NCBI GenBank assembly: GCA_003209225.1
Contig: QCRZ01000002.1
Location: 4,864-68,863, forward strand
DNA from: Pelagibacteraceae bacterium AG-464-B04
GTDB lineage: Bacteria; Pseudomonadota; Alphaproteobacteria; Pelagibacterales; Pelagibacteraceae
Reading direction: 5' to 3'
DNA length: 64,000 nucleotides
Positions 7,688 through 30,265 of this stretch are shown here, one piece after another (within the stretch, counting starts at the first letter, position 1; each line of letters begins with the position of its first letter). The notes under the pieces were generated by a model. It had not been told where the DNA came from. It searched no databases and saw only the letters and a program-made list of their open reading frames with translations. Position numbers and translations under genes: made by a program.

Positions 7688-7690
7688 AAA

Positions 7691-8725
7691 CTATGAATTG
7701 TCTTTTCGTCCGCCAAATACAGTGTGAATTATTTTGGAAGGCTTTACGATTCCAATAACTTTTTTATTAGAATCAATAACAGCTACAGGTTTTTCTTGAC
7801 TTAAAATTTTTTCAGCAACAGTTTCTATAATTACATCTTTTGAAACTTTTAAATCACTTAAATTTTTATTATCAATCATTGGTTCCATCACGCTCTCAAT
7901 TTTTAAAACTTTTTCTCTAGGAACTTCTTCTGTAAATTTTCTAACGTATTCTGTGGCTGGACTTAAAACAATGTTGGCTGGAGTATCCAATTGCTCAATG
8001 ATACCGTCCTTCATTATCGCAATCCGATCTGCAAGTCTAAGCGCTTCGTCAAAATCATGCGTAATAAACATAATTGTTTTTTTTAAAACACCTTGCAGTC
8101 TTAAAAATTCATCTTGCATTTCTTTTCTAATTAACGGGTCTAGAGCAGAAAAAGGTTCGTCTAAAAACCAAATATCTGGCTCAACCGCTAAAGATCTGGC
8201 AATTCCTACTCTTTGCTGTTGTCCTCCAGATAATTCTCTTGGAAAATAATTTTCCCTTCCCTCAAGACCTACAAGCTTAACCATATCCATGGCCTTTTTA
8301 ATACTGTCTTGAGTTTTGAGACCTTTAATTTGTAAAGGGAAAGCAATATTTTCTAGAACAGTTTTGTGAGGAAGGAGGGCAAAGCTTTGAAAAACCATTC
8401 CCATTTTATTTCGTCTTAACTCAATGAGCTCTTTATTTTTCAAAGATAATAAATCTTGACCTTCAATAAAAATTTTGCCTGCCGTAGCATCTGTCAATCT
8501 TGATATACATCGAAGTAAAGTTGATTTTCCAGAACCAGATAATCCCATCACAACCAACATTTCTCCTTTTGAAACCTCAAAAGAAGCATTATTAACACCT
8601 ACGATGCAACCAGCCTCTTGGAAAGTTTTGGCATCAACATTTCCACTGACATCTTGAAGCATTTTTTTCGCATTTGCTCCAAAAATCTTATAAACGCCTT
8701 CACATATAATTACTTTATCAGACAT
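7691..8725 (-). CDS. proV: Glycine-betaine/TMAO-type ABC transporter ATP-binding protein with C-terminal CBS-like tail (ProV/TmoV-like)
   Basis: 344 aa. GLSGSGKSTLLR (Walker A), LSGGQQQRVGIARSL, IWFLDEP, ITHD. Confidence 0.9.
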   Translation of the reverse strand: MSDKVIICEGVYKIFGANAKKMLQDVSGNVDAKTFQEAGCIVGVNNASFEVSKGEMLVVMGLSGSGKSTLLRCISRLTDATAGKIFIEGQDLLSLKNKELIELRRNKMGMVFQSFALLPHKTVLENIAFPLQIKGLKTQDSIKKAMDMVKLVGLEGRENYFPRELSGGQQQRVGIARSLAVEPDIWFLDEPFSALDPLIRKEMQDEFLRLQGVLKKTIMFITHDFDEALRLADRIAIMKDGIIEQLDTPANIVLSPATEYVRKFTEEVPREKVLKIESVMEPMIDNKNLSDLKVSKDVIIETVAEKILSQEKPVAVIDSNKKVIGIVKPSKIIHTVFGGRKDNS

Positions 8726-8737
8726 AAATTTTATTCA

Positions 8738-8771
8738 ACAAATTACACTAAAATTAAAAAAAAATCCCCTC
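8738..8771. repeat. Copy A of a 34-nt direct repeat (ACAAATTACACTAAAATTAAAAAAAAATCCCCTC) immediately 5' of proV
   Basis: Matches 9730-9763 at 32 of 34 positions by eye. In gene orientation it contains a -10-like TGTAAT about 20 nt upstream of the ATG. Confidence 0.8.
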
Positions 8772-8791
8772 CCATTTATTTTATAAGCACT

Positions 8792-9325
8792 CTAATAATT
8801 TTTTATAAAATATACTCTAGTATCTATACTAGTTTTAAAAAAACCTTTGGCTTCACCTGAAACTGTAATTGTATCACTCACTCCCTCTATGGCCCTTATC
8901 GTATATCCTGCAAAACATTTATTTAAAGAGCTGTCCCATTTTACAGAATATTTATCAATTTTATTTCCATTATCAAAATACAATTGCGTTGCACTGACGT
9001 TTACAATGTTTGCTCCCATTACTGAACGTTGGGTTACAATTTTAGTATTTTTGCACACCGCTTCATATTCGCTCAGTGATAATTGGTAACCCTCAGTACT
9101 TTCATAGAAATTTAATCTGCCTCTAGGAAGTGAAGTAATGACTTTATTAATCTCTTCAGTCTTCACGTTCTCTGCGATCTTGTCGCTCTCTTTAATCTCT
9201 CCAAAAAAAATGTTCAAAATGATAAATGTAAAAATTATTATTGCTGTTAAACCAACAAGGCCTACTATTTGTTTAATGCCTTCCGGAGCTTCTTTGTATT
9301 TTTTTAAATTATTTTCTAACAACAT
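8792..9325 (-). CDS. Hypothetical membrane-anchored periplasmic protein
   Basis: 177 aa with a single N-terminal TM helix (IVGLVGLTAIIIFTFIILNIFF). I recognise no family. It lies inside the repeat-flanked cassette. Confidence 0.55.
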   Translation of the reverse strand: MLLENNLKKYKEAPEGIKQIVGLVGLTAIIIFTFIILNIFFGEIKESDKIAENVKTEEINKVITSLPRGRLNFYESTEGYQLSLSEYEAVCKNTKIVTQRSVMGANIVNVSATQLYFDNGNKIDKYSVKWDSSLNKCFAGYTIRAIEGVSDTITVSGEAKGFFKTSIDTRVYFIKNY

Positions 9326-9333
9326 TGTTCTAT

Positions 9334-9726
9334 CTAATTCGGCTCAACTAATGCACCATCTTTCCAGGTGCCTTTTTTAACTGTTCCGTCTGCCATGGTA
9401 AAAGTTCCTTGTCCATTCATGAAACCATCACGCCACTCACCCATGTATGTGGCTCCATCTGGAAAAGTCAAAGTTCCTTGTCCATGCCATTTGCTTTCTT
9501 TAAATTCTCCCTTGTATATGTATCCATTTGGCCAAGTCACAATCCCTTGTCCATGCTTTTTACCAACACTCCACTCACCTACGTATGTGGTTTTGTCCGT
9601 ATAAGTCCAAGTCCCGAATCCGTCTTCACAGTTACCATCAGTACATCCAGTTGTACGTGCAAACCCTGTATTGCAAAGGATCAAACCTAAAAATATATAT
9701 AGAAACAGTTTTTTCATATTCGCCAC
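9334..9726 (-). CDS. Secreted MORN-repeat protein
   Basis: 130 aa with a signal peptide (LFLYIFLGLILCNTGFA). It has 3-4 MORN units: YVGEWSVGKKHGQG, YKGEFKESKWHGQG, YMGEWRDGFMNGQG. Confidence 0.7.
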   Translation of the reverse strand: MANMKKLFLYIFLGLILCNTGFARTTGCTDGNCEDGFGTWTYTDKTTYVGEWSVGKKHGQGIVTWPNGYIYKGEFKESKWHGQGTLTFPDGATYMGEWRDGFMNGQGTFTMADGTVKKGTWKDGALVEPN

Positions 9727-9729
9727 TTT

Positions 9730-9763
9730 ACAAATTACACTAAAACTAAAAAAAAATCCCCCC
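9730..9763. repeat. Copy B of the 34-nt direct repeat (ACAAATTACACTAAAACTAAAAAAAAATCCCCCC) immediately 5' of the MORN gene
   Basis: Direct comparison with 8738-8771. The two copies bracket a cassette of about 990 bp carrying two genes. Confidence 0.8.
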
Positions 9764-9784
9764 TAGTTATAAAAACCAGGAGAG
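9748..9784 (-). terminator. Possible rho-independent terminator after the binding-protein gene
   Basis: The minus-strand RNA reads CUCCUGG-UUUUUAUAA-CUAGGGG (7 bp including two G-U pairs), then GGAU9. It overlaps repeat copy B. Confidence 0.4.
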
Positions 9785-9813
9785 ATTTTCAAAAGCTTAA
9801 GTTTTACAAATAA

Positions 9814-10758
9814 TTATTTTGTAAATGCTTTCCAAACTTTTTTGTTTTTCTTTAACCATGCTTTTGCAGCATCTTCGTGAGTCATTTTATCAAGATCTAC
9901 TAAAGAAGCCATTGCTCCAATCTGACCTGTAGTAAATGACAGTTTTTTAAACATAGCTGCAGCATCTGGATGACTTTTTACCCAGTTCTCGTTAACTGCT
10001 TTTTTCAGATAACCATCAGGTGAACCACATTTTCCATCACCTCCATCAGCTGGTCTACAACCGTCTGTGTATGGAGGGAAATCAATAAATGTAAATCCAG
10101 CGCCATCTGTAAAGTTTGGCGTCCAGTTAAAAATTATTGTTCCTCTTCCTTCTTTTTCAGCAGCTGCTACTTCTGCCCATAGTGCATCAGCACTACCAGC
10201 AAATTTAACTACCCAAAGATCTCCTAAACCTAAAGCATCAATTCTTTGAGGTATTAAATCTCCGTGCCAACTTTGTGGACCTTCTAACATTCTTCCTTTT
10301 CCACCAGAGTCTGGTGTTACAAAGTTTTTAGCACAGTCAGCAGATTTTAAAGCTTCCCAATTTGGTAAACCTGGACATAAACCTTTGTCCATTACCCAGT
10401 TTGGAAAACCCATATCTTCTAAAGTTCTAGCTTCATGGTCACCCCAGTCAAGTAAGCCACCAGCATCACGTGCTGTATCAAATGATTTACCGAACGCAGA
10501 TTGCCAAACTTCATGTGATATATCGACATCACCAATACGAATTGACTCGTAAACTGCATTTGAATCTGCGGGAACATATTCCACGTTACCACCCATACTT
10601 TCCAAGATTCCACCAATTACGTGGGCCATAACAATTTGGCTTGACCAATTGTGCACTGGAATTCTTGTAGGTTTCTTACTATCTGCAGACAAAGCAATTC
10701 CTGTAAAACTAACAAAAGAAATTACTATTGCAGATATAAGAGATATTATTTTTTTCAT
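9814..10758 (-). CDS. proX: Periplasmic glycine-betaine/TMAO-binding protein (ProX/OpuAC family; TmoX-like because it is divergent from tdm)
   Basis: 314 aa with signal peptide MKKIISLISAIVISFVSFTGIALSA. OpuAC-type fold with Trp-rich ligand-cage segments (HNWSSQ, HEVWQSAF). GGAGG Shine-Dalgarno. Confidence 0.8.
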   Translation of the reverse strand: MKKIISLISAIVISFVSFTGIALSADSKKPTRIPVHNWSSQIVMAHVIGGILESMGGNVEYVPADSNAVYESIRIGDVDISHEVWQSAFGKSFDTARDAGGLLDWGDHEARTLEDMGFPNWVMDKGLCPGLPNWEALKSADCAKNFVTPDSGGKGRMLEGPQSWHGDLIPQRIDALGLGDLWVVKFAGSADALWAEVAAAEKEGRGTIIFNWTPNFTDGAGFTFIDFPPYTDGCRPADGGDGKCGSPDGYLKKAVNENWVKSHPDAAAMFKKLSFTTGQIGAMASLVDLDKMTHEDAAKAWLKKNKKVWKAFTK

Positions 10759-10769
10759 ACTTAGCCTCC

Positions 10770-10787
10770 AATAATATTAATATTATT
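10770..10787. promoter_or_regulatory. 18-bp perfect palindrome AATAATATTAATATTATT in the divergent proX/tdm control region (candidate operator)
   Basis: The sequence equals its own reverse complement. It sits directly upstream of the proX ribosome-binding site and about 70 nt upstream of tdm. Confidence 0.35.
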
Positions 10788-10857
10788 AGGTAAAATTGTA
10801 TGGTCTTAGAAATGAGGAGTCAAACCGAATTGAAACATAATTAATCATTGATATACT

Positions 10858-13200
10858 ATGTTTCACATGGAAAATTTGTTAACCAGCCTAAATATTAGAA
10901 ATCCTGGATTAAGAACTTTGCCACCTGGAGTTGAAAGATACTTTATTCAGGGAGGGGGTTTATCAGTTATTGAAATCTCAGCAGAAGATAAGTTAGAAAT
11001 AATTAATGATGAAGGAAAACAAACATGCGAGGTGATAGTTTTTAATTCAAAAGGTAAATGTGATTTATCAATATTAAACTTAAAAGAAAATGCTAATGCT
11101 AATTTTTCAAAAAAAACAATTTCACAAGATGAAAAAATTTCAAAATTATTTAAACACAAAAATATTGATTTTGATAAAGCAAAATCATCAATAATATTTA
11201 ATAAAGATTGCCTAGTTGGTGAAAAAATAACTTTAACATCAAAAGACAAATGTATTGTAATCCTTGCTGCGCCCGGAGAAGCTATGAACGTACATAATCA
11301 AAATCCTCCAACTGACCTAACAATTTTCTTAAATAAATCTAAATTTAAAAAAAGTGAAGAACAATTCCTTCTGCCTGAACCTCTTGGTGATCCAACATAC
11401 GAAAAATTAGTTAAAAGACGTACAGCAGAAATTTATGAAGTAAAAAAAGGAGAATATATTCAAATTATAGATCCTGCTGGAAGACAGTGTTCAGATTTTT
11501 TAACTTTTGATAAAGTAAAACTAGAAAAAGGAATTGAAAGCATTATTGATCCGACAGCAACTCGTACTTTCATGGGCGCTGCTTATCCTAGCCCTGGTTT
11601 GTTTTCAAAATTTTATGACGCATATCATGATCCAATGATCGAAGTTGTTCGAGATACTGTAGGTAGACATGATACTTTCAATTATGCTTGCACCTCAAAA
11701 TACTATGAAGATATGGGTTACTTTGGTCACATAAACTGTTCAGACAATTTTAGTAAGGCTTTTAAAAAATATGAAGTAAAACCAAGAAAAGGCTGGACTG
11801 CTATTAATCTTTTTTTTAATACTAGTATTAATCAATTAAATGTTGCTTCTTTTGACGAACCTTGGTCTAGACCAGGTGATTATGTATTGTTCAGAGCTAC
11901 AAAAGATTTAATTTGCGCATCTTCAGCTTGTCCTTGCGATGTTGATCCAGCAAATGGATGGAATCCAACTGATATTTTTGTTAGAACTTATCCTAAAGAA
12001 CGAAAATATTCGAAAGCAATAGCATTTAGAATGAAAGAAGATTCAGAACCAAAACTAACAAAAGAAACTGGATTTCATAAAAATACTTCTAAGCTCACTA
12101 GAAATTTTATTGATTATAACGGTTATTGGTTAGCAAACAATTATACAAACCTTGGAACAATAAAAGAATATACCGCTTGTAGAGAAAAGGCTATTGCGAT
12201 TGATTTATCTCCTTTAAGAAAATTTGAAATAGTTGGACCAGACTCAGAAAATTTAATGCAATATGCCTTAACACGTAATGTAAAAAAAATTGCTATTGGA
12301 CAAGTCAGTTATTCAGCAATGTGCTATGAAAATGGCGGAATGATTGATGATGGAACAATTTTTCGTTTAGCTAAAGATAATTTTAGATGGATTGGTGGTC
12401 AAGAATATGGAGGCACATGGTTAAGAGAACTTGCTAAAAAAAAGAATTATAAAGTTTGGGTAAAATCATCAACAGATCAAATACATAATATTTCTGTGCA
12501 GGGGCCAAATAGTAGAAAAATTTTAGAAAAATTTGTTTGGACTGCACCTACCCAACCAACAATAAATGAACTTCAATGGTTCAGGTTTGCTATTGCTAGA
12601 ATTGATGATCATGTTGGAATACCAATTATTGTTTCTAGAACCGGATATACTGGTGAGTTAGGTTTTGAAATTTGGTGCCACCCTAATGATGCATCTAAAG
12701 TTTGGGAGAAAGTATTTGAACATGGAGAAGATTTAGGAATAACGCCAATGGGTTTAGAAGGTTTAGATATGGTAAGAATTGAAGCTGGTCTTATTTTTTA
12801 TGGCTATGAATTCAGCGATCAAACAGACCCCTTTGAAGCTGGAATTGGATTTTCTGTGGCTCTAAAAACAAAAGAAGATGACTTTGTTGGTAAAGAAGCG
12901 TTAGTAAAAAGAAAAGCTTCTCCACAGAAAAAACTGGTTGGTTTAGAGCTGATTGGTAAAGAGCAGGCCATTAATGGTGATGGGGTACACGTAGGAAGAG
13001 CTACAATCGGTGTTATAACTAGTGGGATGATTTCGCCCACATTAAACAAAAACATTGCTCTTTGTAGAATGGATGTTAAATATTCTGATATAGGAACAGA
13101 GGTAGAAGTGGGCAAAATCGATGGTCATCAAAAAAGAATTGGAGCTAAAGTTGTTAAATTTCCTTTTTATGATCCTGAAAAATTGAGAGTAAAAGCATAA
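10858..13200 (+). CDS. tdm: Trimethylamine N-oxide demethylase (DUF1989 N-domain + GcvT-type tetrahydrofolate-binding C-domain)
   Basis: 780 aa. The N-terminal half has the DUF1989-like segment YEVKKGEYIQIIDPAGRQCSDFLTFD. The C-terminal half is aminomethyltransferase-like (GPDSENLMQYALTRNV, YSAMCYENGGMIDDGTIFRL, RTGYTGELGFEIW). The domain pair, size and context match Tdm as described for marine bacteria. Confidence 0.75.
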   Translation: MFHMENLLTSLNIRNPGLRTLPPGVERYFIQGGGLSVIEISAEDKLEIINDEGKQTCEVIVFNSKGKCDLSILNLKENANANFSKKTISQDEKISKLFKHKNIDFDKAKSSIIFNKDCLVGEKITLTSKDKCIVILAAPGEAMNVHNQNPPTDLTIFLNKSKFKKSEEQFLLPEPLGDPTYEKLVKRRTAEIYEVKKGEYIQIIDPAGRQCSDFLTFDKVKLEKGIESIIDPTATRTFMGAAYPSPGLFSKFYDAYHDPMIEVVRDTVGRHDTFNYACTSKYYEDMGYFGHINCSDNFSKAFKKYEVKPRKGWTAINLFFNTSINQLNVASFDEPWSRPGDYVLFRATKDLICASSACPCDVDPANGWNPTDIFVRTYPKERKYSKAIAFRMKEDSEPKLTKETGFHKNTSKLTRNFIDYNGYWLANNYTNLGTIKEYTACREKAIAIDLSPLRKFEIVGPDSENLMQYALTRNVKKIAIGQVSYSAMCYENGGMIDDGTIFRLAKDNFRWIGGQEYGGTWLRELAKKKNYKVWVKSSTDQIHNISVQGPNSRKILEKFVWTAPTQPTINELQWFRFAIARIDDHVGIPIIVSRTGYTGELGFEIWCHPNDASKVWEKVFEHGEDLGITPMGLEGLDMVRIEAGLIFYGYEFSDQTDPFEAGIGFSVALKTKEDDFVGKEALVKRKASPQKKLVGLELIGKEQAINGDGVHVGRATIGVITSGMISPTLNKNIALCRMDVKYSDIGTEVEVGKIDGHQKRIGAKVVKFPFYDPEKLRVKA

Positions 13201-13207
13201 AAAAAAT

Positions 13208-14554
13208 ATGGCATTTCCTAAAAAAGCAAAATTTGTTGTAATTGGAGCTGGAATACACGGGCTAAGCACAGCTTGGCATTTAGCGGAAAAAATTAAAAAA
13301 AAAAACGGTAACGGAACAAATAACGATATTGTTGTTATTGATAAAAATGGAATTGCGTCAGGAGCAAGTGGAGTTGCTTGTGGTGTTGTTAGAAATAATT
13401 ATTTTCAACCAGCTATGAGAGAGCTTATGATGCATAGTGTTAAGATTTGGGAAAGTGATCTAAAAAACTTTAGTTATCATCCCGTTGGTTATATGCAAAT
13501 AAGCCCCGAAAGTATGCACAAAGATGTTGCAAGTATTTTTGAACAACAAAAAGCTATTGGATATGAATCAGAATTTGTTGAAGGAAAAGAAGACTCTATG
13601 AAATATATGAAAAATATATTTCATGATTGGCAAGCTAGAGGAATCACTTCTGTATTACATGAAAAAAGAGGTGGATATGCAAATAATACTGCTGCTATTT
13701 ATGGGCTAGCAAACAAGGCTGAAAGCTTTGGTGTTAAAGTTATAACAGGAACTGAAGTTACTGGATTTAAAAGAGGAAGCAACAGTAAAGCTGTAACAGG
13801 TGTTGTTACTTCAAAAGGAACTATTGATTGTGAGCAAGTAATTGTAGGTGCTGGTCCATGGGTTAAAAGTTTTTGGGATATGCTTGAGTTACCTAAAAAA
13901 ATTTCTATTAAAGATGACCAAGGAAAAATACATAAAGATTATCCAATGTGGATATATTGGATGTTAACAGAAGGTGTTCTGGGTGTTGATCCCAATATGC
14001 AAAAAACTGACGATGGAAAAATGCCTCCAGTTATACACGTAGATAGTGATGCACATTTATTCTCAGATGTTGATGGTTCTCTTATTACTGATAAAATGTG
14101 GGGAATATATTATAAGCCAGATTTTAATTTTAAAGGAGTTCAGGGCGGATCAGCGCCTTACAAGGTTATGAGGCCTGTAGATGAAGTAAAAGTAGATCCT
14201 TATGGACCAGATTCACCAGAATTTCAAACTACTGCTGAATTTGCTCACATGTGGTGTTCTGCTTTAGCTCATTGCCAAAAAAGATTTAAAGGAAAAATTA
14301 AAGTTTATCACAAAGGACCATCAGGAGGGCTTGGATGTTTTACTCCAGATTCTTTCCCTGTTTTTGATAAATTTTGTGAAAATGTTTATATAATCGCAGA
14401 TTCAAACCATGGATATAAAATGATTGGGGTTGGGGATCTAGTTTCAGATGAGGTTTTAGGAAAAGAAAGCTCTCTTCTTAAACCATTTAGATTTAATCGA
14501 TATGCGAAAGGTGAATTGCACCCTGTATCCAGTAGTCCTTTTCCTTGGAGCTAA
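13208..14554 (+). CDS. FAD-dependent oxidoreductase, DAO family, sarcosine-oxidase-beta / MgdA-like; no alpha/gamma/delta partners nearby
   Basis: 448 aa. N-terminal Rossmann motif KFVVIGAGIHGLSTAWHLA. DAO-type body (GGYANNTAAIYGLA, VIVGAGPW, FTPDSFPVFD). Confidence 0.75.
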   Translation: MAFPKKAKFVVIGAGIHGLSTAWHLAEKIKKKNGNGTNNDIVVIDKNGIASGASGVACGVVRNNYFQPAMRELMMHSVKIWESDLKNFSYHPVGYMQISPESMHKDVASIFEQQKAIGYESEFVEGKEDSMKYMKNIFHDWQARGITSVLHEKRGGYANNTAAIYGLANKAESFGVKVITGTEVTGFKRGSNSKAVTGVVTSKGTIDCEQVIVGAGPWVKSFWDMLELPKKISIKDDQGKIHKDYPMWIYWMLTEGVLGVDPNMQKTDDGKMPPVIHVDSDAHLFSDVDGSLITDKMWGIYYKPDFNFKGVQGGSAPYKVMRPVDEVKVDPYGPDSPEFQTTAEFAHMWCSALAHCQKRFKGKIKVYHKGPSGGLGCFTPDSFPVFDKFCENVYIIADSNHGYKMIGVGDLVSDEVLGKESSLLKPFRFNRYAKGELHPVSSSPFPWS

Positions 14555-14649
14555 ATTTTTATAAATTAATTAAGATCAAAATAATTCCAAAATATCTTTT
14601 AAAAATAAAAAAAAATTGAATTATTAAAACTATTTATTTCAATCAAAAC

Positions 14650-14703
14650 GCGAAAGGTGAATTCCAACCCATATCTAGTGGTCCATTTTCTTTGGAGCTA
14701 AAT
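14650..14703 (+). pseudogene. Degenerate duplicate of the last ~17 codons of the upstream flavoprotein gene
   Basis: GCGAAAGGTGAATTCCAACCCATATCTAGTGGTCCATTTTCTTTGGAGCTAAAT closely resembles 14504-14556 (GCGAAAGGTGAATTGCACCCTGTATCCAGTAGTCCTTTTCCTTGGAGCTAAAT). It carries substitutions and a 1-nt indel and has no upstream ORF. Confidence 0.6.
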
Positions 14704-14792
14704 CTAGACGAGTATTTGTTTTTCAGCTAACATATTTCAAATTTTAAGAAGTTGTAAATCTAAATCTTAAATCTTTGAGGGGGATTAGTTAA

Positions 14793-16265
14793 ATGACAGA
14801 TCTAGAAAAGCACGTTAACAGACCAGGGCGTGATAAAATTGTAAAAAAAGTTAGAGAAAAAATTAATGAACTAGGAATTACTTATATATATTTTCAATTT
14901 ATATCAGTAACAGGAAGAGTAGTGGGAAAAGGTATACCCGCTGATCACTGGGAAAGAATTGCAGAAAAAGGTTTCCAGTTAGTTTATGGAGCTACCGCAA
15001 ACTTATTTGTTGATCGTCATAAAAATTATATAGGTTATGGGCCAGAAGCAAAAGAATTAGTTGGAATACCAGATCCAGAAACTTTTGTTCAAGTGCCTTG
15101 GGATAAAAGAGTTGGAAGAGTTTATTGTACTTGTTTTAGAAATAGAGAAGAAAGAGATAATCCGGGTGGACATTTAACTTCTGATTGTAGAGGTAATTTA
15201 AGAATACATCACGAAGAATTTACAAAGAAACACAAAGGTTTGAAATTAAGAATTGGAACTGAACCAGAAATGATGTGGTTAACCAGAAATCAAGATGGTA
15301 CGCCAACTGGTAAAGGTTTTTCGAAACCATATTGTTATCACATTGACCAATTTGAATCCTTAAGGCCAGTATTTATGAAAGTGATTGAATACTCAAACGC
15401 AATGGGATTAGACATGATTCAAGGAGATCATGAGGATGCGCCTGGTCAATTAGAATTAAATTGGATGTTTGATGACGTATTAAGAAACGCAGATAGACTT
15501 TCAACATATAGACAAATTTGCGCACAAGTTGCTAGAGAACATGGAATAATTGCATGTTTCATGACAAAACCTTTTATGGGAGTTTCAGCCAGTGGATGTC
15601 ATACAAACATGTCACTATGGACAGGTGGAAATGATAAAGTGAATAAATTACATCATAAAACATTACCAGGAGTAGAAGAAGTTTTTACTTATGTTCAAGG
15701 TGGAAAAAACACATTTATGCCAGATACAAAAGATGTTCAGCTGCCAGGAAAAATTGGTTTAAAATGTATTGGTGGTGTTATGAAACACTTAGGTGCTTTA
15801 ACTGCTATTGGCTCATCAACTGTAAACTCGTATAGAAGATTATGGGATCAAGGTTTCTGGGCGCCAGTTTATGCAGACTGGGGTTATCAAAATAGAACTT
15901 GCGGATTAAGAGTTTCTGCTCCAGGAAGATTTGAATACCGTTCAGTTGACTCGATGCATAACCCTTATTTAATGGGCTCAGCATTATTAAAATCTTTTGA
16001 CGATGGCCTGACAAATAATATTGATCCAGGAAAACCTGAATCAAGAAACATCTACGAAGCTCAAAAAGCAGGTAAAGATGTTAAAAAATTACCATTAAGC
16101 CTTGGTGAAGCCTTGGATCGTTTAAAAGAAGATAAAGTTATTCAATCAGCTATGCCAGATGAAATGTATAAAATATTTCATTGGTACAAAAACGATGAAT
16201 GGGAAAAATTTTTAGGAGCAACAACTCAGTGGGATCTTGACACCTACCTGGATTGTTTACCTTAG
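14793..16265 (+). CDS. gmaS: Glutamine-synthetase-family ligase, probable gamma-glutamylmethylamide synthetase
   Basis: 490 aa. GS motifs YIYFQFISVTGRVVGKGIP (beta-grasp), HEDAPGQLELNW, KPFMGVSASGCHTNMSLW, NSYRRL, RFEYRSVDSMHNPYL. It sits immediately upstream of mgsABC. Strong GAGGGGGA Shine-Dalgarno. Confidence 0.7.
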   Translation: MTDLEKHVNRPGRDKIVKKVREKINELGITYIYFQFISVTGRVVGKGIPADHWERIAEKGFQLVYGATANLFVDRHKNYIGYGPEAKELVGIPDPETFVQVPWDKRVGRVYCTCFRNREERDNPGGHLTSDCRGNLRIHHEEFTKKHKGLKLRIGTEPEMMWLTRNQDGTPTGKGFSKPYCYHIDQFESLRPVFMKVIEYSNAMGLDMIQGDHEDAPGQLELNWMFDDVLRNADRLSTYRQICAQVAREHGIIACFMTKPFMGVSASGCHTNMSLWTGGNDKVNKLHHKTLPGVEEVFTYVQGGKNTFMPDTKDVQLPGKIGLKCIGGVMKHLGALTAIGSSTVNSYRRLWDQGFWAPVYADWGYQNRTCGLRVSAPGRFEYRSVDSMHNPYLMGSALLKSFDDGLTNNIDPGKPESRNIYEAQKAGKDVKKLPLSLGEALDRLKEDKVIQSAMPDEMYKIFHWYKNDEWEKFLGATTQWDLDTYLDCLP

Positions 16266-16285
16266 TTCGAAAGGAAATAATTATT

Positions 16286-17227
16286 ATGTGTGGAATAGCA
16301 GGATTAATTCATAAAGGAAAGACTGTAAATATAGGCAAGGAATTACAAGATATGTTGCAGGCCCTTAAACATAGAGGACCTGATTCTACAGGTTTTGCAC
16401 TCTACGGCGAGGGAAGTAAAGGGGATTATATTATGCGTTTTAAAGTAGGAGAAAACGTTAAAGAAGGAAGCTCAGCTGTAAACGAAGATAAATCAATCTA
16501 CGATATTAGAAAAAAACAAGTAGACAAACATTTAATAGATTTAGGTGCGGATATTTATCAAGAAGAACGTTTAACCCCTTATTCGTTTAGATATGTAATT
16601 AAATATGACAAAGATTTAATGGAGTTTTCAAAAAAAATTGAAAGTGTTGAGATGACCGAAATATTATCTCTTGGTAAAACCTTGGAGTTAGTTAAAGATA
16701 TTGGTGATGCCGAAGAAGTTTCGAAACAATATGGATTATATAAAGTAAAAGGGACTCATGCTATTGGCCACTCGAGAATGGCTACGGAATCAGGAGTAGA
16801 TATAAGATCTGCACATCCTTTTTGGGGCTATCCTTTTAGCGATGTTTCGGTAGTGCACAATGGACAATTAACTAATTATTGGAATAATAGAAGGACACTT
16901 GAAAATAAAGGAATGCGCTTTATGTCAGAGTGTGATTCAGAGCTTATTGCAGTTTACTTAGCTCAAAAAATGAGAAGTGGAGCATCATTGCGAGACGGAA
17001 TGAACGACTCTCTTAAGGAATTAGATGGAGTTTTTACATATTTGGTAGCGACAAAAGATTCTTTGGGTATGGCAAAAGATACAATGGCTGCTAAACCTTT
17101 AGTCCTATATGAATCAGATGATTTAGTAGCAATGGGTTCTGAAGAAATAGCTATTAGAACTTTACTGCCGCAAGAAATAGATACTTATGACCCTTATGAT
17201 GGAGAAGTAAAAGTATGGGAAATTTAA
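16286..17227 (+). CDS. mgsA: N-methylglutamate synthase subunit A (class-II glutamine amidotransferase domain, GlxB-like)
   Basis: MCGIAGL places the Ntn nucleophile Cys directly after the initiator Met. An AAGGA ribosome-binding site lies upstream of ATG 16286. Also HSRMATES and VVHNGQLTNY. Confidence 0.8.
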   Translation: MCGIAGLIHKGKTVNIGKELQDMLQALKHRGPDSTGFALYGEGSKGDYIMRFKVGENVKEGSSAVNEDKSIYDIRKKQVDKHLIDLGADIYQEERLTPYSFRYVIKYDKDLMEFSKKIESVEMTEILSLGKTLELVKDIGDAEEVSKQYGLYKVKGTHAIGHSRMATESGVDIRSAHPFWGYPFSDVSVVHNGQLTNYWNNRRTLENKGMRFMSECDSELIAVYLAQKMRSGASLRDGMNDSLKELDGVFTYLVATKDSLGMAKDTMAAKPLVLYESDDLVAMGSEEIAIRTLLPQEIDTYDPYDGEVKVWEI

Positions 17228-18057
17228 AAAATTCAAAATCACAATCTATGGGACTTCATAAAGAAGTTCTTACAGGAAGAACCCAGCAAGTCTTTTTCAA
17301 TCCAGAGGAAGCAGAAAATTTCTTTTATTATGGGGCTTATGATGTTGATTTTAATAAAAGAACAGAAATAGATGCAAAAAACTTAACTTGCGCAACACTT
17401 AACCACAAACTGCATGATTTGATGAAAGAAGGTTATGGAACGATTGCTGTTAAAAACCCTCAAGGGAAACATAGTTTGGGTGTAGGAATTTTAAATAAAT
17501 TAAACTTAATTTTTGAAGGTTCAATTGGATATTTTGGAGTAGGCTCCATTGATGGTCCTGTAGTTAGAATTACTGGAAGAGTTGGTTGGTCTTGTGCAGA
17601 AAATATGATGGCAGGAAAAGTTGTTATTGAAAAAAATGCAGGGTCTTGCTTCGGAGCTGCAATCCGAGGTGGAGATTTAATTTGTAAAGGGAGTGTTGGA
17701 GCAAGAACTGGAATTGATATGAAAGGTGGAACTATAATTGTAGGTGGTGATGCTGGAGCTTTTACAGGTTTTATGATGCAAAGAGGAAGAATAATTGTCC
17801 TAGGGGATGCAGGTATAAACTTAGGTGACTCTATGTATGATGGTACAATTTTTATTGGAGGAAAAATTAAATCTTATGGAAGCGATGCTGTAAAATCTAA
17901 AATCACATCAGATGATATAGCTTGGTTAAAAAGAAAACTTAAAGTAGCAGAAATAGGATCTGATTTTGATTTAAGTAAAATGACTAAAATAGTTGCTGGT
18001 AAAAAACTTTGGAATTATGATGCACTAGAACCATCTGAAAAAAAAGGAGCTATATAA
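17215..18057 (+). CDS. mgsB: N-methylglutamate synthase subunit B (GXGXG beta-helix domain, GlxC-like)
   Basis: 280 aa. Gly-rich repeats GSIGYFGVGSIDG and GSVGARTGIDMKGGTIIVGGDAGAFTGFMMQRGRIIVLGDAG, typical of the GltB C-terminal domain. The start overlaps the end of mgsA; an alternative ATG is at 17248. Confidence 0.75.
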   Translation: MGNLKNSKSQSMGLHKEVLTGRTQQVFFNPEEAENFFYYGAYDVDFNKRTEIDAKNLTCATLNHKLHDLMKEGYGTIAVKNPQGKHSLGVGILNKLNLIFEGSIGYFGVGSIDGPVVRITGRVGWSCAENMMAGKVVIEKNAGSCFGAAIRGGDLICKGSVGARTGIDMKGGTIIVGGDAGAFTGFMMQRGRIIVLGDAGINLGDSMYDGTIFIGGKIKSYGSDAVKSKITSDDIAWLKRKLKVAEIGSDFDLSKMTKIVAGKKLWNYDALEPSEKKGAI

Positions 18058-18058
18058 A

Positions 18059-19438
18059 ATGGCAAAAAAAAAGAAAAAATCTAAAAGTAAAACAAATGGT
18101 GTTTCTGAAGATAGAAACAAAAGTCTTTTAGGACAAAATTCAATTTTTACACCTGAAGTTATTGACGACATCCATATAAAAGCACAATTAGGTCGTTACA
18201 GAATGCGTGGTATGGCCTTGATGAAAAAGATACCAACATTTGATGATCTAGTATTTTTGCCAGGCACATTAACAAGATTTGTTATTGAGGGTTATAGAGA
18301 AAAATGTGAAACAAAAACAATTATTGGCCCACGTTGCAAAAACCCCATCGAATTAGATATTCCAGTTTACATTACTGGAATGAGTTTTGGTGCTCTTTCG
18401 TATGAAGCAAAAACTGCATTAGCTAGAGGAGCTACAATGGCTGGAAGTGCAACATGTTCTGGTGAAGGTGGAATGATTCCAGATGAAAGACGATATTCGG
18501 AAAAATGGTTTTATCAATGTATACAATCTCGATATGGTTTTAATCCACACCATGCCCAGCTAGCAGATGGTATAGAAGTTTTTATAGGTCAGGGACAAAA
18601 AGTTGGAATGGGTGGTCATTTAATGGGACAAAAAGTAACTGATCAAGTTGCTGAGATGAGATCGTTACCTTCTGGTATTGATCAACGTTCTCCAGCAAGA
18701 CACCCTGATTGGTTAGGTCCAGATGATCTAGCTTTAAAAGTTCAAGAATTAAGAGAACTCACAAACAACCAAGTTCCAATACAATTAAAATTAGGTGCTG
18801 CTAAAGTTTATGATGATGTTCGTATGGCAGCAAAATGCGACCCTGACTCAATTTATTTAGATGGAATGGAAGGATCTACTGGAGCAGGTCCTCACATTGC
18901 GGCGGCTAACACAGGCATTCCTGGAATAGCTGCAATCCGAGAGGCACGAAGAGCTTTAGATGACATTGGTCAATCTGGAAAAGTAACATTAATTTATGCT
19001 GGTGGTGTTAGAGATGGAGCTGACTTAGCAAAAGCTTTGGCATTAGGTGCAGATGCTGTTGCAATTGGAACTGGCTCTATGATTGCACTAAACTGTAATA
19101 AAGAAATTCCAGGAGTTAATTTTGAAAAAGAGATGGGAGTTAAAGCTGGGCATTGCTATCACTGTCATACGGGTCGTTGTCCAGTCGGAGTTGCAACACA
19201 AAATCCAAAACTTAGAAAAAGATTAAATCCAGATGATGCGGCATTAAGAGTTTATAATTATCTTCATTCAATGGCTTTAGAATTACAGCTATTAGCTAGA
19301 GCCTGTGGCAAGACCAATGTTCACTCTTTAGAACCAGAAGACCTAGCAGCTTTAACAATGGAAGCTTCTGCTTTGGCAAAAGTTCCACTAACTGGGACAA
19401 ACCATACTGTTGGAGTGGATGATTTCCATAAAATTTAA
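18059..19438 (+). CDS. mgsC: N-methylglutamate synthase subunit C (FMN-dependent glutamate-synthase central domain, GlxD-like)
   Basis: 459 aa. ITGMSFGALS, SGEGGM, DGMEGSTGAGP, IYAGGVRDGADLAKALALGADAVAIGT, and Cys cluster CYHCHTGRCPVG. Confidence 0.8.
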   Translation: MAKKKKKSKSKTNGVSEDRNKSLLGQNSIFTPEVIDDIHIKAQLGRYRMRGMALMKKIPTFDDLVFLPGTLTRFVIEGYREKCETKTIIGPRCKNPIELDIPVYITGMSFGALSYEAKTALARGATMAGSATCSGEGGMIPDERRYSEKWFYQCIQSRYGFNPHHAQLADGIEVFIGQGQKVGMGGHLMGQKVTDQVAEMRSLPSGIDQRSPARHPDWLGPDDLALKVQELRELTNNQVPIQLKLGAAKVYDDVRMAAKCDPDSIYLDGMEGSTGAGPHIAAANTGIPGIAAIREARRALDDIGQSGKVTLIYAGGVRDGADLAKALALGADAVAIGTGSMIALNCNKEIPGVNFEKEMGVKAGHCYHCHTGRCPVGVATQNPKLRKRLNPDDAALRVYNYLHSMALELQLLARACGKTNVHSLEPEDLAALTMEASALAKVPLTGTNHTVGVDDFHKI

Positions 19439-19443
19439 ATAAT

Positions 19444-19515
19444 ATGAAAAAAAAAAAAATTAAAAAAAATACCTCTAAGATGAAAAAAAAAAAAATTAAA
19501 AAAAATACCTCTAAG
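19444..19515 (+). repeat. Perfect 36-bp tandem duplication (2 full copies plus a partial third), each copy containing an ATG and A13/A8 homopolymers
   Basis: ATGAAAAAAAAAAAAATTAAAAAAAATACCTCTAAG occurs at 19444-19479 and again at 19480-19515. The next unit begins ATGAAAGAAAAAGAA. Confidence 0.95.
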
Positions 19516-19869
19516 ATGAAAGAAAAAGAAAGCGCTAGAGAAAAAATGATTGGCCAACATATCGGTTATCGATATGATGTGAATTTACTCCCAGACTATA
19601 AAAAAGTTACTCCGTTTCTTAAAAAATACATTGAACATATGGGTTGGGACGACCTGAATTGGTTAGAAGATGTTCATATGGGTTACGAAGAAGGACGACC
19701 TGCTGTTTTTTGCAGAAATGCAAATGGGTGGGTTACTATCCCAAAAAAAATTAAATTGCCGGACAGCCAACAAGATAGAGATATGATTGCTAGAGAACTG
19801 TTAGTCAAATTTCAAATGTCTCCAAAACATCCGCTTGTCGATTTAAAAAAAGCTTATAAAAAAGGCTAA
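19444..19869 (+). CDS. Hypothetical protein co-transcribed with mgsC (Lys-rich repeated N-terminus); true start uncertain
   Basis: 141 aa. Starts 5 nt after the mgsC stop. The body (IGYRYDVNLLPDYKK...GWDDLNWLEDVHMGYEEGRPAVFCRNANGWVTIP) matches no family I recognise. In-frame ATGs at 19444, 19480 and 19516, plus a later one (MIGQH). Confidence 0.5.
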   Translation: MKKKKIKKNTSKMKKKKIKKNTSKMKEKESAREKMIGQHIGYRYDVNLLPDYKKVTPFLKKYIEHMGWDDLNWLEDVHMGYEEGRPAVFCRNANGWVTIPKKIKLPDSQQDRDMIARELLVKFQMSPKHPLVDLKKAYKKG

Positions 19870-19883
19870 ATAATAAAATATCG

Positions 19884-20363: not shown

Positions 20364-20474
20364 AATAAAAATTAAAAATTACAACTCCAAATTGTACATC
20401 CTTTATAATTAAACTTATTCTTTACCCTTTACTTATTTTTTAAAAAATCATTATAATTTTAATATTAATAAATA

Positions 20475-21737: not shown

Positions 21738-21749
21738 AAGTTCTTAAAA

Positions 21750-21793: not shown

Positions 21794-21825
21794 GCTATAT
21801 AATAAAATAATAAATTAGGACTAAT

Positions 21826-23693: not shown

Positions 23694-23694
23694 A

Positions 23695-25118: not shown

Positions 25119-25132
25119 GAAAGGAAAACAAA

Positions 25133-26931: not shown

Positions 26932-27066
26932 ACAATAAAAATTTGTTTTTTGTTACAACCCAAAGTTGATTTAGTTTTTTTAAACGTTGCCCTTCAACAA
27001 TTCTACATACTTGTACTACTTGTCGCACTAACTAAGATAAATGTAATTTTATTTGGGAGGACAAAT

Positions 27067-28452
27067 ATGACTGACGAATTAGGTGCTCTTACCGTCATAT
27101 TTACAGAATTCTACTACTGGATAACAGTAGTACTCATGTTTTTAATTCACGTGGGTTTCTGTATGTATGAAGTTGGAGCTTCACGTTATAAACACCACCA
27201 ACATACTTTGATGAAAAATACAATATTGATACCGTTGGTAACTATTACATGGTTTTTCTTTGGATGGTGGATTTATTGGGCCTTCCCAACTGGACCAGGT
27301 CTTGCTCCGTCTATAATGACGGAAAGTACTGGTTTAATTTTGGGAGGTGGATTTGGTGCAAACGAATTAGCAAATCCAATGAGTCCAATAATGGCTGTTA
27401 ATTTAAACGATCACATTAATGGAGTGTTCTGGGCTGCGTTCTTGCTGTTTTCTTGGACCGCTGCTTCGATCGTCTCCGGAGCATTAATTGAAAGAATTAC
27501 AACTTTTGCATTTGGTATTTTGGCAATTGCGATTGGTTCTGTATTTTGGACAATAGATGCTGCTTGGGGTTGGCACTTTGATGGTTGGATGCTTAAACTG
27601 TTGGGTTACCATGATGCTTATGCATCAGGTGTAATTCACGCTATAGCTGGAGGATTTGCTTTAGGTGTGCTTTGTGTTTTAGGCCCACGTATTGGAAAAT
27701 TTTCTTCTAGTGGTGAACCGAGAAACATTGGACCAAGAAACCCTTGGTTAGTCTGTGTAGGATTATTTTTAATTTACACAGGATTCTGGGGATTCTATGC
27801 GGCATGTAATATTCCGATATTTAATCTTGGACCAGAATATGGATTGGGAGATGGAGTAAACTTCTTTACTGCAACTAACATCTATGTAACGCCAACAACA
27901 CTTAGTGGTATTACTATGAACTTCTTAATGTCGTTAGCTGGTGGTTTACTAGCTGGATATTGGGTTTCAAAAGGTGATCCATTCTGGACTTATTCAGGCG
28001 GACTAGCTGGTATCATTACTGCTTCAGCAGGCAATGACTTATACCATCCTATACAATCAATGATTATTGCAATGGTTGGTGTGTGGGTTGCTTACAAAAT
28101 GCATTACTGGGTTGAACGTAAGTTCAAAATTGATGATGCGGTTGGAGCTGTAGCTGTTCACGGATATGCTGGAGTTGTCGGACTTGTAATCTGCGGTTTC
28201 GTTCTATGGGGTTACCCTTCATCAGGATATGATGGTTTGGGTTACGCAGCAATTAATCCTATTGGAATGATTATCGGAGCTATTATTATGTTTGGGCTTC
28301 TTGGTTTCTTACCGGGTTGGATCTTAGCTAAAATACTTCATTCATCAGGTAAACTTCGTATACCTCGTGAAGTAGAGCTAGCTGGATTAGACTACAACAT
28401 TTTGGAGGCTGCTAAAAAAGATGAAAAAGCAGTTGCTTCATCTAACAGATAG
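27067..28452 (+). CDS. amtB: Ammonium (possibly methylammonium) transporter, Amt family
   Basis: 461 aa from ATG 27067, which is preceded by GGGAGG. About 11 TM helices. Conserved His segments ASGVIHAIAGG and DDAVGAVAVHGYAGVVG. Confidence 0.85.
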   Translation: MTDELGALTVIFTEFYYWITVVLMFLIHVGFCMYEVGASRYKHHQHTLMKNTILIPLVTITWFFFGWWIYWAFPTGPGLAPSIMTESTGLILGGGFGANELANPMSPIMAVNLNDHINGVFWAAFLLFSWTAASIVSGALIERITTFAFGILAIAIGSVFWTIDAAWGWHFDGWMLKLLGYHDAYASGVIHAIAGGFALGVLCVLGPRIGKFSSSGEPRNIGPRNPWLVCVGLFLIYTGFWGFYAACNIPIFNLGPEYGLGDGVNFFTATNIYVTPTTLSGITMNFLMSLAGGLLAGYWVSKGDPFWTYSGGLAGIITASAGNDLYHPIQSMIIAMVGVWVAYKMHYWVERKFKIDDAVGAVAVHGYAGVVGLVICGFVLWGYPSSGYDGLGYAAINPIGMIIGAIIMFGLLGFLPGWILAKILHSSGKLRIPREVELAGLDYNILEAAKKDEKAVASSNR

Positions 28453-28939: not shown

Positions 28940-30265
28940 ATGGCAAAAGATTTATCGAAAATAGCAAAACAAAAAAAAATCAAATATTTTCTAATCAGTT
29001 TTGTTGATCTTTTTGGAGTTCTAAGGTCAAAATTAGTTCCAACTGAAGCCATCAAAGATATGCAAAAAAATGGGGCGGGATTTGCTGGATTTGCTACTTG
29101 GCTAGATATGTCACCCGCTGACTCAGATATGTTTGCTAAACCAGATCCTGATAGCTTAATACAACTACCTTGGAAAAAAGAGATTGGATGGTTGGCTTCT
29201 GATTTATGGATGAATAACAAGCCAGTAGATGCTTCACCTCGGGAAATGTTAAAAAAACAAATTATAAGATTAAGTAAAAAAGGTTTAATTCTGAAATCGG
29301 GAGTTGAGTGTGAATATTTTTTAATTAATAAAGAAGGTACTGCAATCGCAGATAATAGAGATGTTCAGTCTAAACCTTGTTATGATCAATCTGCTCTTAT
29401 GCGTCAATATGAGTTAATAAAAGAAATTTGTGATTACATGATACAATTAGGTTGGGGCCCATATCAAAATGATCATGAAGACGCTAATGGCCAATTTGAA
29501 ATGAACTGGAATTATTCTGACAGTCTAAAGACAGCGGATAGGCACGTTTTTTTTAAATTCATGGTTAAAACAATTGCTGAAAAGCATGACTTAAGAGCTA
29601 CTTTTATGCCTAAACCTTTCGAAAAATTAACAGGAAACGGTTGTCATTCGCATGTTTCGTTATGGAAAGGAAATACTAATGTATTTTTAGATTCTGGAGA
29701 TAGATATGGTTTATCCAAAATAGCTTATAATTTTCTTGCTGGCGTTTTACATTCCGCAGAGTCTTTATGTGCCTTTTTTAATCCAACAATTAATAGTTAC
29801 AGAAGAATTGATGCTCCACCAACAGAGTCTGGTGCTAGTTGGTCCCCAAGCAGTGTAACATATACCGGGAACAATAGAACACATATGATTAGAATTCCTG
29901 ATGCTGGAAGATTTGAATTAAGATTAATGGATGGCTCCACAAATCCATACTTATTACAAGCTGGAGTTATAGCGGCTGGAATAGATGGAATGGACAAAAA
30001 AAGAGATCCTGGTAAACCTTTGTTAATTAACATGTATACAAATCAAAAAGATTATCCAAATTTAAAAAAGCTACCTTCTGAATTAGAAGGTGCTCTTGAA
30101 AATTTAGTAAATAGCAAAGAAATAAATGAAGCTTTTGGAGAAAAAGTAATTAACAGTTATATAAAACTAAAAAATAATGAAATTGATAATTTTAATGCTA
30201 AAGAAACTTTTTTAAAAGAAAAGCCAATTACTGAATGGGAAAAACTAAATACTTTAGATTGTTAA
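28940..30265 (+). CDS. Glutamine-synthetase-family ligase, type-I-like paralogue (GS or gamma-glutamyl-amine synthetase)
   Basis: 441 aa. KYFLISFVDLFGVLRSKLVP (beta-grasp), HEDANGQFEMNW, KPFEKLTGNGCHSHVSLW, NSYRRI, RIPDAGRFELRLMDGSTNPYL. Confidence 0.75.
   Translation: MAKDLSKIAKQKKIKYFLISFVDLFGVLRSKLVPTEAIKDMQKNGAGFAGFATWLDMSPADSDMFAKPDPDSLIQLPWKKEIGWLASDLWMNNKPVDASPREMLKKQIIRLSKKGLILKSGVECEYFLINKEGTAIADNRDVQSKPCYDQSALMRQYELIKEICDYMIQLGWGPYQNDHEDANGQFEMNWNYSDSLKTADRHVFFKFMVKTIAEKHDLRATFMPKPFEKLTGNGCHSHVSLWKGNTNVFLDSGDRYGLSKIAYNFLAGVLHSAESLCAFFNPTINSYRRIDAPPTESGASWSPSSVTYTGNNRTHMIRIPDAGRFELRLMDGSTNPYLLQAGVIAAGIDGMDKKRDPGKPLLINMYTNQKDYPNLKKLPSELEGALENLVNSKEINEAFGEKVINSYIKLKNNEIDNFNAKETFLKEKPITEWEKLNTLDC

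Follow-up and report, generated by a model that had tools for sequence, protein, structure and literature searches.

A conserved six-gene module headed by a SAR11_1304-type flavoprotein, a candidate N-demethylase of methylated-amine catabolism in Pelagibacteraceae bacterium AG-464-B04

SAR11 bacteria, which outnumber all others in the ocean, convert trimethylamine N-oxide (TMAO) to dimethylamine (DMA) without a known DMA-degrading enzyme. A candidate for this step is the flavoprotein whose gene directly follows tdm, the TMAO demethylase gene, in a 64,000-nucleotide stretch of the genome of Pelagibacteraceae bacterium AG-464-B04 (hereafter the window, meaning the whole stretch that was analyzed), and the locus raises the question of what this flavoprotein acts on. 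The original prediction, made from the letters of the window, regarded the gene as an orphan. Comparisons with related loci indicate instead that it is the first of six genes that form a module, conserved in many lineages and apparently running the glutamate-mediated methylamine (N-methylglutamate) pathway in a second, iron-sulfur-type form. Given its predicted structure, the flavoprotein is best explained as a stand-alone amine oxidoreductase that depends on flavin adenine dinucleotide (FAD) and has a sarcosine-oxidase fold. The function that we favor, with a probability of about 0.45, is the FAD-dependent N-demethylation of N-methylated glutamate that the module supplies.

The flavoprotein and its family

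The flavoprotein gene (13208–14554, plus strand) starts with ATG, encodes 448 amino acid residues and was confirmed as real. It lies directly behind tdm, as had been predicted; tdm, stop codon included, extends to 13200, which leaves 7 nucleotides between the two genes. The protein matched PF01266 (DAO) with 131.2 bits against a threshold of 27.9, the match being limited to residues 9–227, and its GxGxxG dinucleotide fold motif reads IGAGIHG. The AlphaFold2 model built from an alignment had a predicted local distance difference test (pLDDT) score of 92 and a predicted template modeling (pTM) score of 0.92, and was used instead of a single-sequence model with a pLDDT of 31. It displayed a full two-domain sarcosine-oxidase-like fold. 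The DAO match and the modeled fold bear out the original view of an amine-oxidase-type flavoprotein of the DAO family amid methylated-amine genes. Nearest to the model among the solved folds was the SoxB β-subunit of heterotetrameric sarcosine oxidase (template modeling (TM) scores of 0.70/0.79 at ~20% identity), and further matches were the β-subunit of archaeal L-proline dehydrogenase, monomeric sarcosine oxidase and dimethylglycine oxidase/dehydrogenase. All of these nearest solved folds belong to enzymes that oxidize N-methyl or secondary amino acids.

Short contigs from four marine RNA libraries matched the flavoprotein gene, mostly with 85–95% identity; such libraries may hold DNA. In this sequencing-run search, only 5–7% of the sampled words were found in marine RNA libraries, and the short contigs were uninformative on transcript ends, on co-transcription with tdm and on the spacer behind the gene, which was not covered. 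A scan of positions 10700–20500 for promoters and terminators returned counts no higher than those of shuffled sequence and gave no operon boundaries.

The curated cut-offs of NCBIfam were used to assess family membership, and the flavoprotein fell below every one of them. It scored 90.8 bits on the SoxB/MgdA family (TIGR01373, cut-off 529.45), 58.6 bits on SolA (NF008425, cut-off 257), 51 bits on ThiO (cut-off 251), 48.9 bits on monomeric sarcosine oxidase (TIGR01377, cut-off 479.65) and 34.8 bits on DadA (cut-off 383). The two true SoxB genes of the AG-464-B04 genome scored 716 and 693 bits on TIGR01373. The predicted likeness to the β-subunit SoxB/MgdA therefore shrinks to a likeness of fold. 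The flavoprotein shares with SoxB/MgdA the best structural match, the FAD-binding N-terminal half (~53–57 bits) and an aligned pair of Arg and Lys, but differs in its low overall identity, in ~45 extra residues of the substrate domain and in having Asn in place of His173. This His, part of an ARHD motif at position 173 of the 2GAG β chain and presumably the covalent site of flavin mononucleotide (FMN), was present in 9/9 SoxB-like sequences, whereas the flavoprotein family possesses Asn (ANNT). Similar to monomeric sarcosine oxidase and SolA, the flavoprotein is apparently single-subunit, has the same fold (TM scores of ~0.70/0.81) and conserves the aligned Arg and Lys; different from them, its identities to both are only 15–20%, and the Cys that we take to be their flavinylation site seems to lie in another column than Cys377.

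In a maximum-likelihood tree, of the kind that the original prediction had called for, the flavoprotein family (30 rows) formed a clade of its own with support values of 97/98, and the SoxB clade was separate (100/100). SolA, DadA and PuuB of Escherichia coli were placed on very long branches, and the sister relation of PuuB to the flavoprotein family was weak (83/87) and unreliable. These comparisons suggest that the flavoprotein belongs to a distinct and highly conserved SAR11_1304-type family outside every named family. A search with this family returned 8000 matches, with identities of ~70% between orders, and clustering at 50% identity yielded one main cluster and a few clusters near 40%. 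Members of the family, the flavoprotein among them, share at least ~54% full-length identity and the motifs GVVRNNY, HEKxGGYA, GGLGCFTPD and ADSNHGYKM. A 93%-identical protein is called 'methylglutamate dehydrogenase subunit A' in a record of the Joint Genome Institute. In addition, a sister subfamily (36–42% identity, Ala for Cys377) occurred in several Alphaproteobacteria (genomes G153, G137, G070 and G031; proteins P0127 and P0130), sometimes beside the core form.

Arg62 and Lys404 of the flavoprotein were at least 90% conserved within the family and aligned, in SoxB and E. coli SolA, with an Arg (IIRSNY/LIRHAY) and a Lys (GGFK/GHGFK). We take these columns to match Arg52 and Lys348, which bind the substrate carboxylate in monomeric sarcosine oxidase. 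Thus, an amino-acid-type substrate is favored over free DMA, which the original prediction had named as a direct substrate and which now seems unlikely. The alignment of the flavoprotein with SolA by hhalign covered the N-terminal 259 residues only. The column of SolA Cys308, presumably the covalent FAD site, is Gly374 in the flavoprotein; Cys377 is three columns off and is replaced by Ala in the subfamily of 40% identity.

The six-gene module

Of the 80 related loci retrieved, 73 were evaluable and 57 had enough flanking sequence. The gene directly downstream of the flavoprotein gene in 52 of the 73 loci encodes GS490, a divergent amine ligase with a glutamine synthetase (GS) fold, and all five partners of the module were found in 43 of the 57. 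The module comprises the flavoprotein, GS490, GlxB, GlxC, GlxD with a CxxCxxxxCP motif, and the conserved protein orf141, and the window carries all six. Its carriers included Pelagibacteraceae, Dongiaceae, Rhizobiaceae, Hyphomicrobiales, Rhodospirillales, gammaproteobacterial metagenome-assembled genomes (MAGs) and one Vulcanimicrobiota MAG. The gene is hence no orphan, and a divergent ligase, an iron-sulfur-type synthase and orf141 had been overlooked as its partner set. Thirty loci had tdm within 10 kb of the flavoprotein gene, and 15 had a SoxB-like gene there. Where soxBDAG adjoined the flavoprotein gene in these 15 loci, the operon carried its own SoxB. As the original prediction had stated, α, γ and δ partners are lacking nearby: SoxD, SoxA and SoxG were found neither on the contig of the window nor in the module loci.

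The features of the window that bear on the module are as follows.
9814..10758, minus strand: TmoX-like (OpuAC-family) substrate-binding protein (PF04069, 126 bits), divergent from tdm; the order TmoX-Tdm-DAO recurs in SAR11 loci
10858..13200, plus strand: tdm, TMAO demethylase with DUF1989 and GcvT domains (NF053776, 1153.5 bits, cut-off 1100), as predicted
13208..14554, plus strand: SAR11_1304-type FAD flavoprotein of 448 residues, first gene of the module (DAO Pfam match, model and tree)
14555..14792, no strand: A/T-rich spacer of 238 nucleotides with a degenerate copy of the 3' end of the flavoprotein gene
14793..16265, plus strand: GS490, putative amine ligase of 490 residues (TIGR03105 below cut-off; motifs)
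16286..17227, plus strand: GlxB/MgsA-like class II amidotransferase (PF13522/PF13537)
17215..18057, plus strand: GlxC/MgsB-like GXGXG subunit (PF01493)
18059..19438, plus strand: GlxD/MgsC-like FMN subunit with Cys-x2-Cys-x4-Cys-Pro (PF01645, 302 bits)
19444..19869, plus strand: orf141, conserved protein with a core of ~110 residues and 57 invariant columns
26950..28452, plus strand: Amt ammonium/methylammonium transporter (TIGR00836; synteny)
28940..30265, plus strand: canonical GmaS, gamma-glutamylmethylamide synthetase (TIGR03105, 613.5 bits, cut-off 469.6)

The gene next to the flavoprotein gene had been taken for gmaS, but GS490 is a divergent paralogue. It scored 296 bits on TIGR03105 (cut-off 470) and 166–184 bits against any solved GS or GmaS, and the canonical GmaS of the window is the protein of 28940–30265, which scored 549 bits against the GmaS structure 7CQL and 310 bits against 9QUR ('glutamate--methylamine ligase'). 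A motif comparison with the published GmaS work (PMC7948447) showed that the Glu-flap of GS490 is GFWAP, with Trp as in GmaS, and that its Asp50' loop is VYGAT, without Asp. Because of this GmaS-type Trp and the lack of Asp50', GS490 is predicted to be an organic-amine ligase and not a glutamine synthetase. An ordinary paralogue of the pair of GS and glutamate synthase (GOGAT) was also considered for the module and was rejected, GS490 lacking the ammonium-handling Asp and Glu. In the spacer between the flavoprotein and GS490 genes, positions 14607–14692 repeat the last 86 nucleotides of the flavoprotein gene (14461–14546) with 71% identity, which looks like the scar of a duplication or recombination.

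The synthase-like trio that had been called MgsABC is present, but as a variant. The FMN subunit GlxD contains the motif CYHCHTGRCPVG near residues 366–375, which was invariant in 47 orthologues, whereas two canonical MgsC proteins examined have GAYDDWHEGxDPAG at this position and no Cys there. The three-cysteine motif resembles what we take to be the 3Fe-4S site of glutamate synthase. It suggests a GOGAT-like iron-sulfur cluster in GlxD, and the retention of such a site implies an external redox partner. The amidotransferase of the module keeps its N-terminal Cys. Its open reading frame (ORF) opens at a TTG at 16253, and the N-terminal catalytic Cys follows a Met at 16286 (MCGIAG), so that translation probably begins at 16286 and the gene would not overlap that of GS490, as it seems to do from the TTG.

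The last member, orf141, was always found behind GlxD. It matched no family in Pfam or NCBIfam, and a look-up in a protein atlas returned no usable match. In the window orf141 starts (19444–19520) with an exact lysine-rich repeat of 12 residues (KKKKIKKNTSKM, twice), which is absent from its orthologues, whose core begins near residue 31. Between orf141 and amt, ~7 kb (19884–26931) hold a minus-strand ORF of 159 residues, a five-gene ATP-binding cassette transporter of the Urt/Fmd type, and formamidase-like and hydratase-like proteins; in most SAR11 relatives amt comes directly after orf141.

Similar to the canonical pathway of GmaS, MgsABC and MgdABCD in Methyloversatilis, Methylocella and Ruegeria, the module combines a ligase, a three-part synthase and a flavoprotein oxidase in the same logic and order, and shares with it the GmaS hallmark substitutions of the ligase and the N-terminal Cys of the amidotransferase. 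Different from the canonical pathway, however, its ligase has 490 residues and resembles solved GmaS structures no more than it resembles those of ordinary GS, its FMN subunit has the iron-sulfur-type site that canonical MgsC lacks, it adds orf141, and a single flavoprotein replaces the four-subunit dehydrogenase.

The closest described locus is that of 'Ca. Pelagibacter ubique' strain HTCC1062, in which SAR11_1302 (a GBT-type binding protein), SAR11_1303 (an aminomethyltransferase, now Tdm), SAR11_1304 ('monomeric sarcosine oxidase') and SAR11_1305 (glnT) follow one another (PMC3160333). From this synteny and from relatives in subgroup Ia we infer that the flavoprotein corresponds to SAR11_1304, which has the same position after SAR11_1302 and tdm and before glnT. 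The subgroup Ia orthologues of HIMB1483 and 'Ca. P. communis' were 68% identical and had an identical gene order. Three differences were found: the gap to tdm is ~430 nucleotides in subgroup Ia; in the window, an insert of ~6.5 kb with urea/amide-transporter genes and formamidase-like ones separates orf141 from amt; and the second, canonical mgsABC set of HTCC1062 was not found here.

Distribution across genomes

Profile searches were run on 300 Alphaproteobacteria genomes that were at least 90% complete. The flavoprotein and GS490 were each found in 28 genomes, 23 of which were common to both (odds ratio 246). The module was present in 16/22 tdm-positive and 12/278 tdm-negative genomes, a 17-fold enrichment, and the flavoprotein in 14/22 and 14/278, respectively. 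PF11927 served as the marker of the DMA-degrading DmmDABC, a heme-dependent oxidative N-demethylase (HODM), DmmA presumably being of the HODM α-subunit type. Among the 22 tdm-positive genomes, those with the module comprised 1 with a strong DmmA-like match and 15 without, and those lacking the module comprised 3 with (4 when one weaker PF11927 match was included) and 3 without (2 with the weaker match counted). The Fisher p value of this exclusion was 0.046 (0.009 with the weaker match), a significance that kinship among the genomes overstates. No exclusion from DmmA-like genes was observed for the flavoprotein alone (p = 0.6). The PF11927 query matched 38/301 genomes other than that of AG-464-B04, and at the loci of its matches (L102–L105) none of the query proteins was found, the query set being without Dmm subunits.

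Canonical GmaS was identified in 20/28 module genomes, only 9 of which also had canonical MgsC, which was absent from the other 11; among GmaS genomes that were free of the module, canonical MgsC occurred in 21/29. In the near-complete Pelagibacter genome HIMB1483, the only synthase-type subunits were GltB and the GlxD of the module. Since many genomes with GmaS and the module lack canonical MgsC, the module synthase very probably also processes gamma-glutamylmethylamide. AG-464-B04, L097/G301 and most Pelagibacter genomes have canonical GmaS without any canonical mgsABC, and one locus (L071) has both sets, as described for HTCC1062. Published SAR11 pathway maps may ascribe the N-methylglutamate synthase step to genes that are absent from many strains.

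Among 85 Pelagibacterales genomes, the flavoprotein was found in 54 and tdm in 51, both restricted to two genera. All 51 tdm carriers also had the flavoprotein, usually adjacent, as the co-occurrence proposed with the original prediction would have it.

The AG-464-B04 assembly is 63% complete. A genome profile search identified in it a complete soxBDAG-type operon on each of the contigs C1 and C11, and neither canonical mgsABC nor a DmmA-like match to PF11927 was found in this 63%-complete genome. The predicted lack of dmmDABC agrees with the latter result and with its published absence from SAR11 (PMC5520151). The predicted lack of a four-subunit N-methylglutamate dehydrogenase stood for the contig of the window, but the step is not obviously missing from the genome, given the two soxBDAG-type operons, which partly count against the original prediction. 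The flavoprotein as the missing N-methylglutamate dehydrogenase was accordingly rejected as the leading explanation. A soxBDAG pair is likewise present in HTCC1062, as Sun 2011 described.

Candidate function and competing explanations

A role of SAR11_1304 in DMA metabolism is not a new idea; it has been raised as speculation before. Under nitrogen limitation of HTCC1062, only one protein was induced more strongly than SAR11_1304, and Smith 2013 proposed that SAR11_1304 frees primary amines or ammonia and named the missing DMA step explicitly (PMC3870248). Lidbury 2017 reported that dmmDABC is absent in all SAR11 representatives, raised a role of SAR11_1304 in DMA oxidation as speculation, and proposed missing DMA degradation as the reason for the abundance of marine aerosols derived from DMA; no evidence of DMA oxidation by SAR11 was available (PMC5520151). 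We found no paper after Lidbury 2017 that assigns a function to SAR11_1304, and a paper on SAR11 polyamines (PMC8437039) and a 2026 paper on trimethylamine regulation (PMC13390433) are silent on the gene.

In the function that we favor, GS490 would couple a small methylated amine to glutamate at the expense of ATP; SAR11 would obtain the amine from TMAO via Tdm. The GlxBCD-like enzyme would move the amine onto a 2-oxoglutarate/glutamate skeleton, yielding N-methylated glutamate, and the flavoprotein would oxidize the N-methyl C-N bond, so that formaldehyde is released and glutamate, or its less methylated form, is regenerated. The present analysis shows the gene, its fold, the limits of its family, its conserved neighbors and its co-occurrence with tdm; from these we infer the catalytic steps, the substrate and the electron acceptor (O2, the respiratory chain or the iron-sulfur site of GlxD). 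The amine that enters at GS490 may be DMA or monomethylamine; the former is attractive and partly supported by the distribution of the module. A complex prediction for the flavoprotein with GlxD (residues 25–459) and the orf141 core scored 0.00 and gives no verdict either way.

Several observations weigh against N-methylated glutamate from the module as the substrate. First, the two soxBDAG-type operons of SAR11 could oxidize N-methylglutamate themselves (PMC3160333). Second, under nitrogen limitation of HTCC1062, the orthologues of GS490 and GlxD (SAR11_1305 and SAR11_1308) fell while SAR11_1304 rose (PMC3870248), and this discordant regulation argues against a strictly coupled function of the flavoprotein and the module. 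Third, 5/28 module genomes lacked the flavoprotein and 5/28 flavoprotein genomes lacked the module (~18% of carriers). Moreover, the flavoprotein was found without the module in ~20 loci, beside soxBDAG, GcvT-like, Rieske oxygenase, or glucose-methanol-choline (GMC) oxidoreductase and aminotransferase genes. Marinobacterium jannaschii and a Hellea MAG possess a lone flavoprotein but no synthase of either the Mgs or the module type; thus, N-methylglutamate cannot be the sole source of substrate there. Finally, at locus L022 (88% identity, 776–5494), genes for a DUF1015 protein, an uncharacterized protein and a 2-hydroxyacid dehydrogenase take the place of the module behind tdm and the flavoprotein gene. 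The loci with a lone flavoprotein are still islands of N-methyl catabolism, and the lone and module-linked flavoproteins interleave in the tree, so that one function is probably common to both.

A specific form of the favored function would account for the fate of DMA, although as a whole it is somewhat doubtful. GS490 would convert DMA to gamma-glutamyl-dimethylamide, GlxBCD would form N,N-dimethylglutamate, the flavoprotein would release N-methylglutamate and formaldehyde, and a soxBDAG-type enzyme would finish the route, which would replace DmmDABC in SAR11. The synthesis would be reductive, at the iron-sulfur/FMN subunit, and the electrons from the flavoprotein might recycle to the synthase. 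Such a route is feasible because DMA is a substrate, if a poor one, of canonical GmaS, with a Michaelis constant of 16 mM (PMC7948447), so that a secondary amine can be glutamylated. The absence of dmmDABC from SAR11 and the enrichment of the module in tdm-positive genomes agree with it, and GS490 is no simple substitute for GmaS, which most module genomes (20/28) keep. The analogy with DmmDABC is possibly one of function only, the module favoring tdm-positive genomes without a DmmA-like gene; the proteins and the chemistry of DmmDABC are unrelated to those of the module. The tendency of the module to exclude DmmA-like genes is weak and confounded by kinship, however, the counts are small with related genomes overstating significance, and the flavoprotein itself did not show it. 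In addition, tdm, dmm and the module occur together in one genome, 12 module genomes are without tdm, and SAR11 has not been found to oxidize DMA. Since the module synthase seems to serve canonical GmaS too, monomethylamine alone could explain the module.

Alternatively, the flavoprotein could work independently of the module as a general nitrogen-scavenging oxidase, with amino acids or N-methyl amino acids of the sarcosine, glycine or opine type as substrates and ammonia or primary amines as products, in line with the proposal of Smith 2013. We regard this as unlikely. The strong induction under nitrogen limitation, in which the module genes did not take part (PMC3870248), is what such an enzyme would display. 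The lone copies lie in islands of the glycine-betaine/choline type with soxBDAG, GcvT-like, Rieske, GMC oxidoreductase and aminotransferase genes, and their interleaving with the module-linked copies also suits it. The conserved Arg/Lys pair, which we assume to bind a carboxylate, would fit an amino-acid substrate of this kind as well. Yet the flavoprotein falls far below the cut-off of every named oxidase family, its identities of 65–70% across classes imply a single, tightly constrained substrate, and the GS490 module is by far its strongest partner.

Still less probable is direct oxidation or dehydrogenation of DMA to methylamine and formaldehyde in connection with Tdm, which was the first option of the original prediction. 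The closeness of the two genes speaks for it, with the gap of 7 nucleotides in the window shrinking to 1–3 nucleotides in L022, L023 and L040, and the pair is kept where the module is not adjacent (L022 and L046); furthermore, every tdm-positive Pelagibacterales genome sampled has the flavoprotein. The SAR11-like L046 (G306, 7472–20187; also L111) has tdm divergent from the flavoprotein gene, followed by an ORF of 115 residues, a soxBDAG operon and gmaS. This soxBDAG operon is 83% identical to the C11 operon of AG-464-B04, and the GS490 module lies ~20 kb off on the same contig. Half of the flavoprotein genomes in the Alphaproteobacteria sample (14/28) are without tdm, however, and in tdm-positive genomes the flavoprotein and DmmA-like genes were not mutually exclusive. 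Arg62 and Lys404, aligned as they are with presumed carboxylate ligands, suggest a substrate that bears a carboxylate, and no enzyme of this fold is known to act on a simple alkylamine.

Least likely of all are two further roles. The flavoprotein could resemble PuuB and oxidize the gamma-glutamyl amide that GS490 makes, or it could serve only to pass electrons to or from the iron-sulfur site of GlxD, without catalyzing a step of the pathway. In E. coli, PuuA and PuuB likewise pair a GS-like ligase with an oxidase of the DAO family, PuuB was the weakly supported sister of the flavoprotein family, and the three-cysteine site of GlxD calls for an external redox partner, but the PuuB placement involves a very long branch (6.2), on which such joins are unreliable, gamma-glutamyl(di)methylamide offers a flavin oxidase no free amine, and the flavoprotein and the module each do without the other in ~18% of carriers.

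Returning to N-demethylation of a module-made N-methylated glutamate, the vague notion of an orphan oxidase gives way to a defined pathway hypothesis, through the position of the flavoprotein gene at the head of the module and through the module as the only N-methylglutamate-synthase-like enzyme beside canonical GmaS in many genomes. Routine annotations as 'monomeric sarcosine oxidase' or 'methylglutamate dehydrogenase subunit A' for the flavoprotein, and as 'gmaS' for the ligase of 490 residues, are corrected accordingly. If true, the form of this function that starts from DMA would be the so far unknown dimethylamine degradation of SAR11 and of many other tdm-bearing bacteria, and would remove the proposed 'metabolic bottleneck' in the cycling of marine methylated amines.

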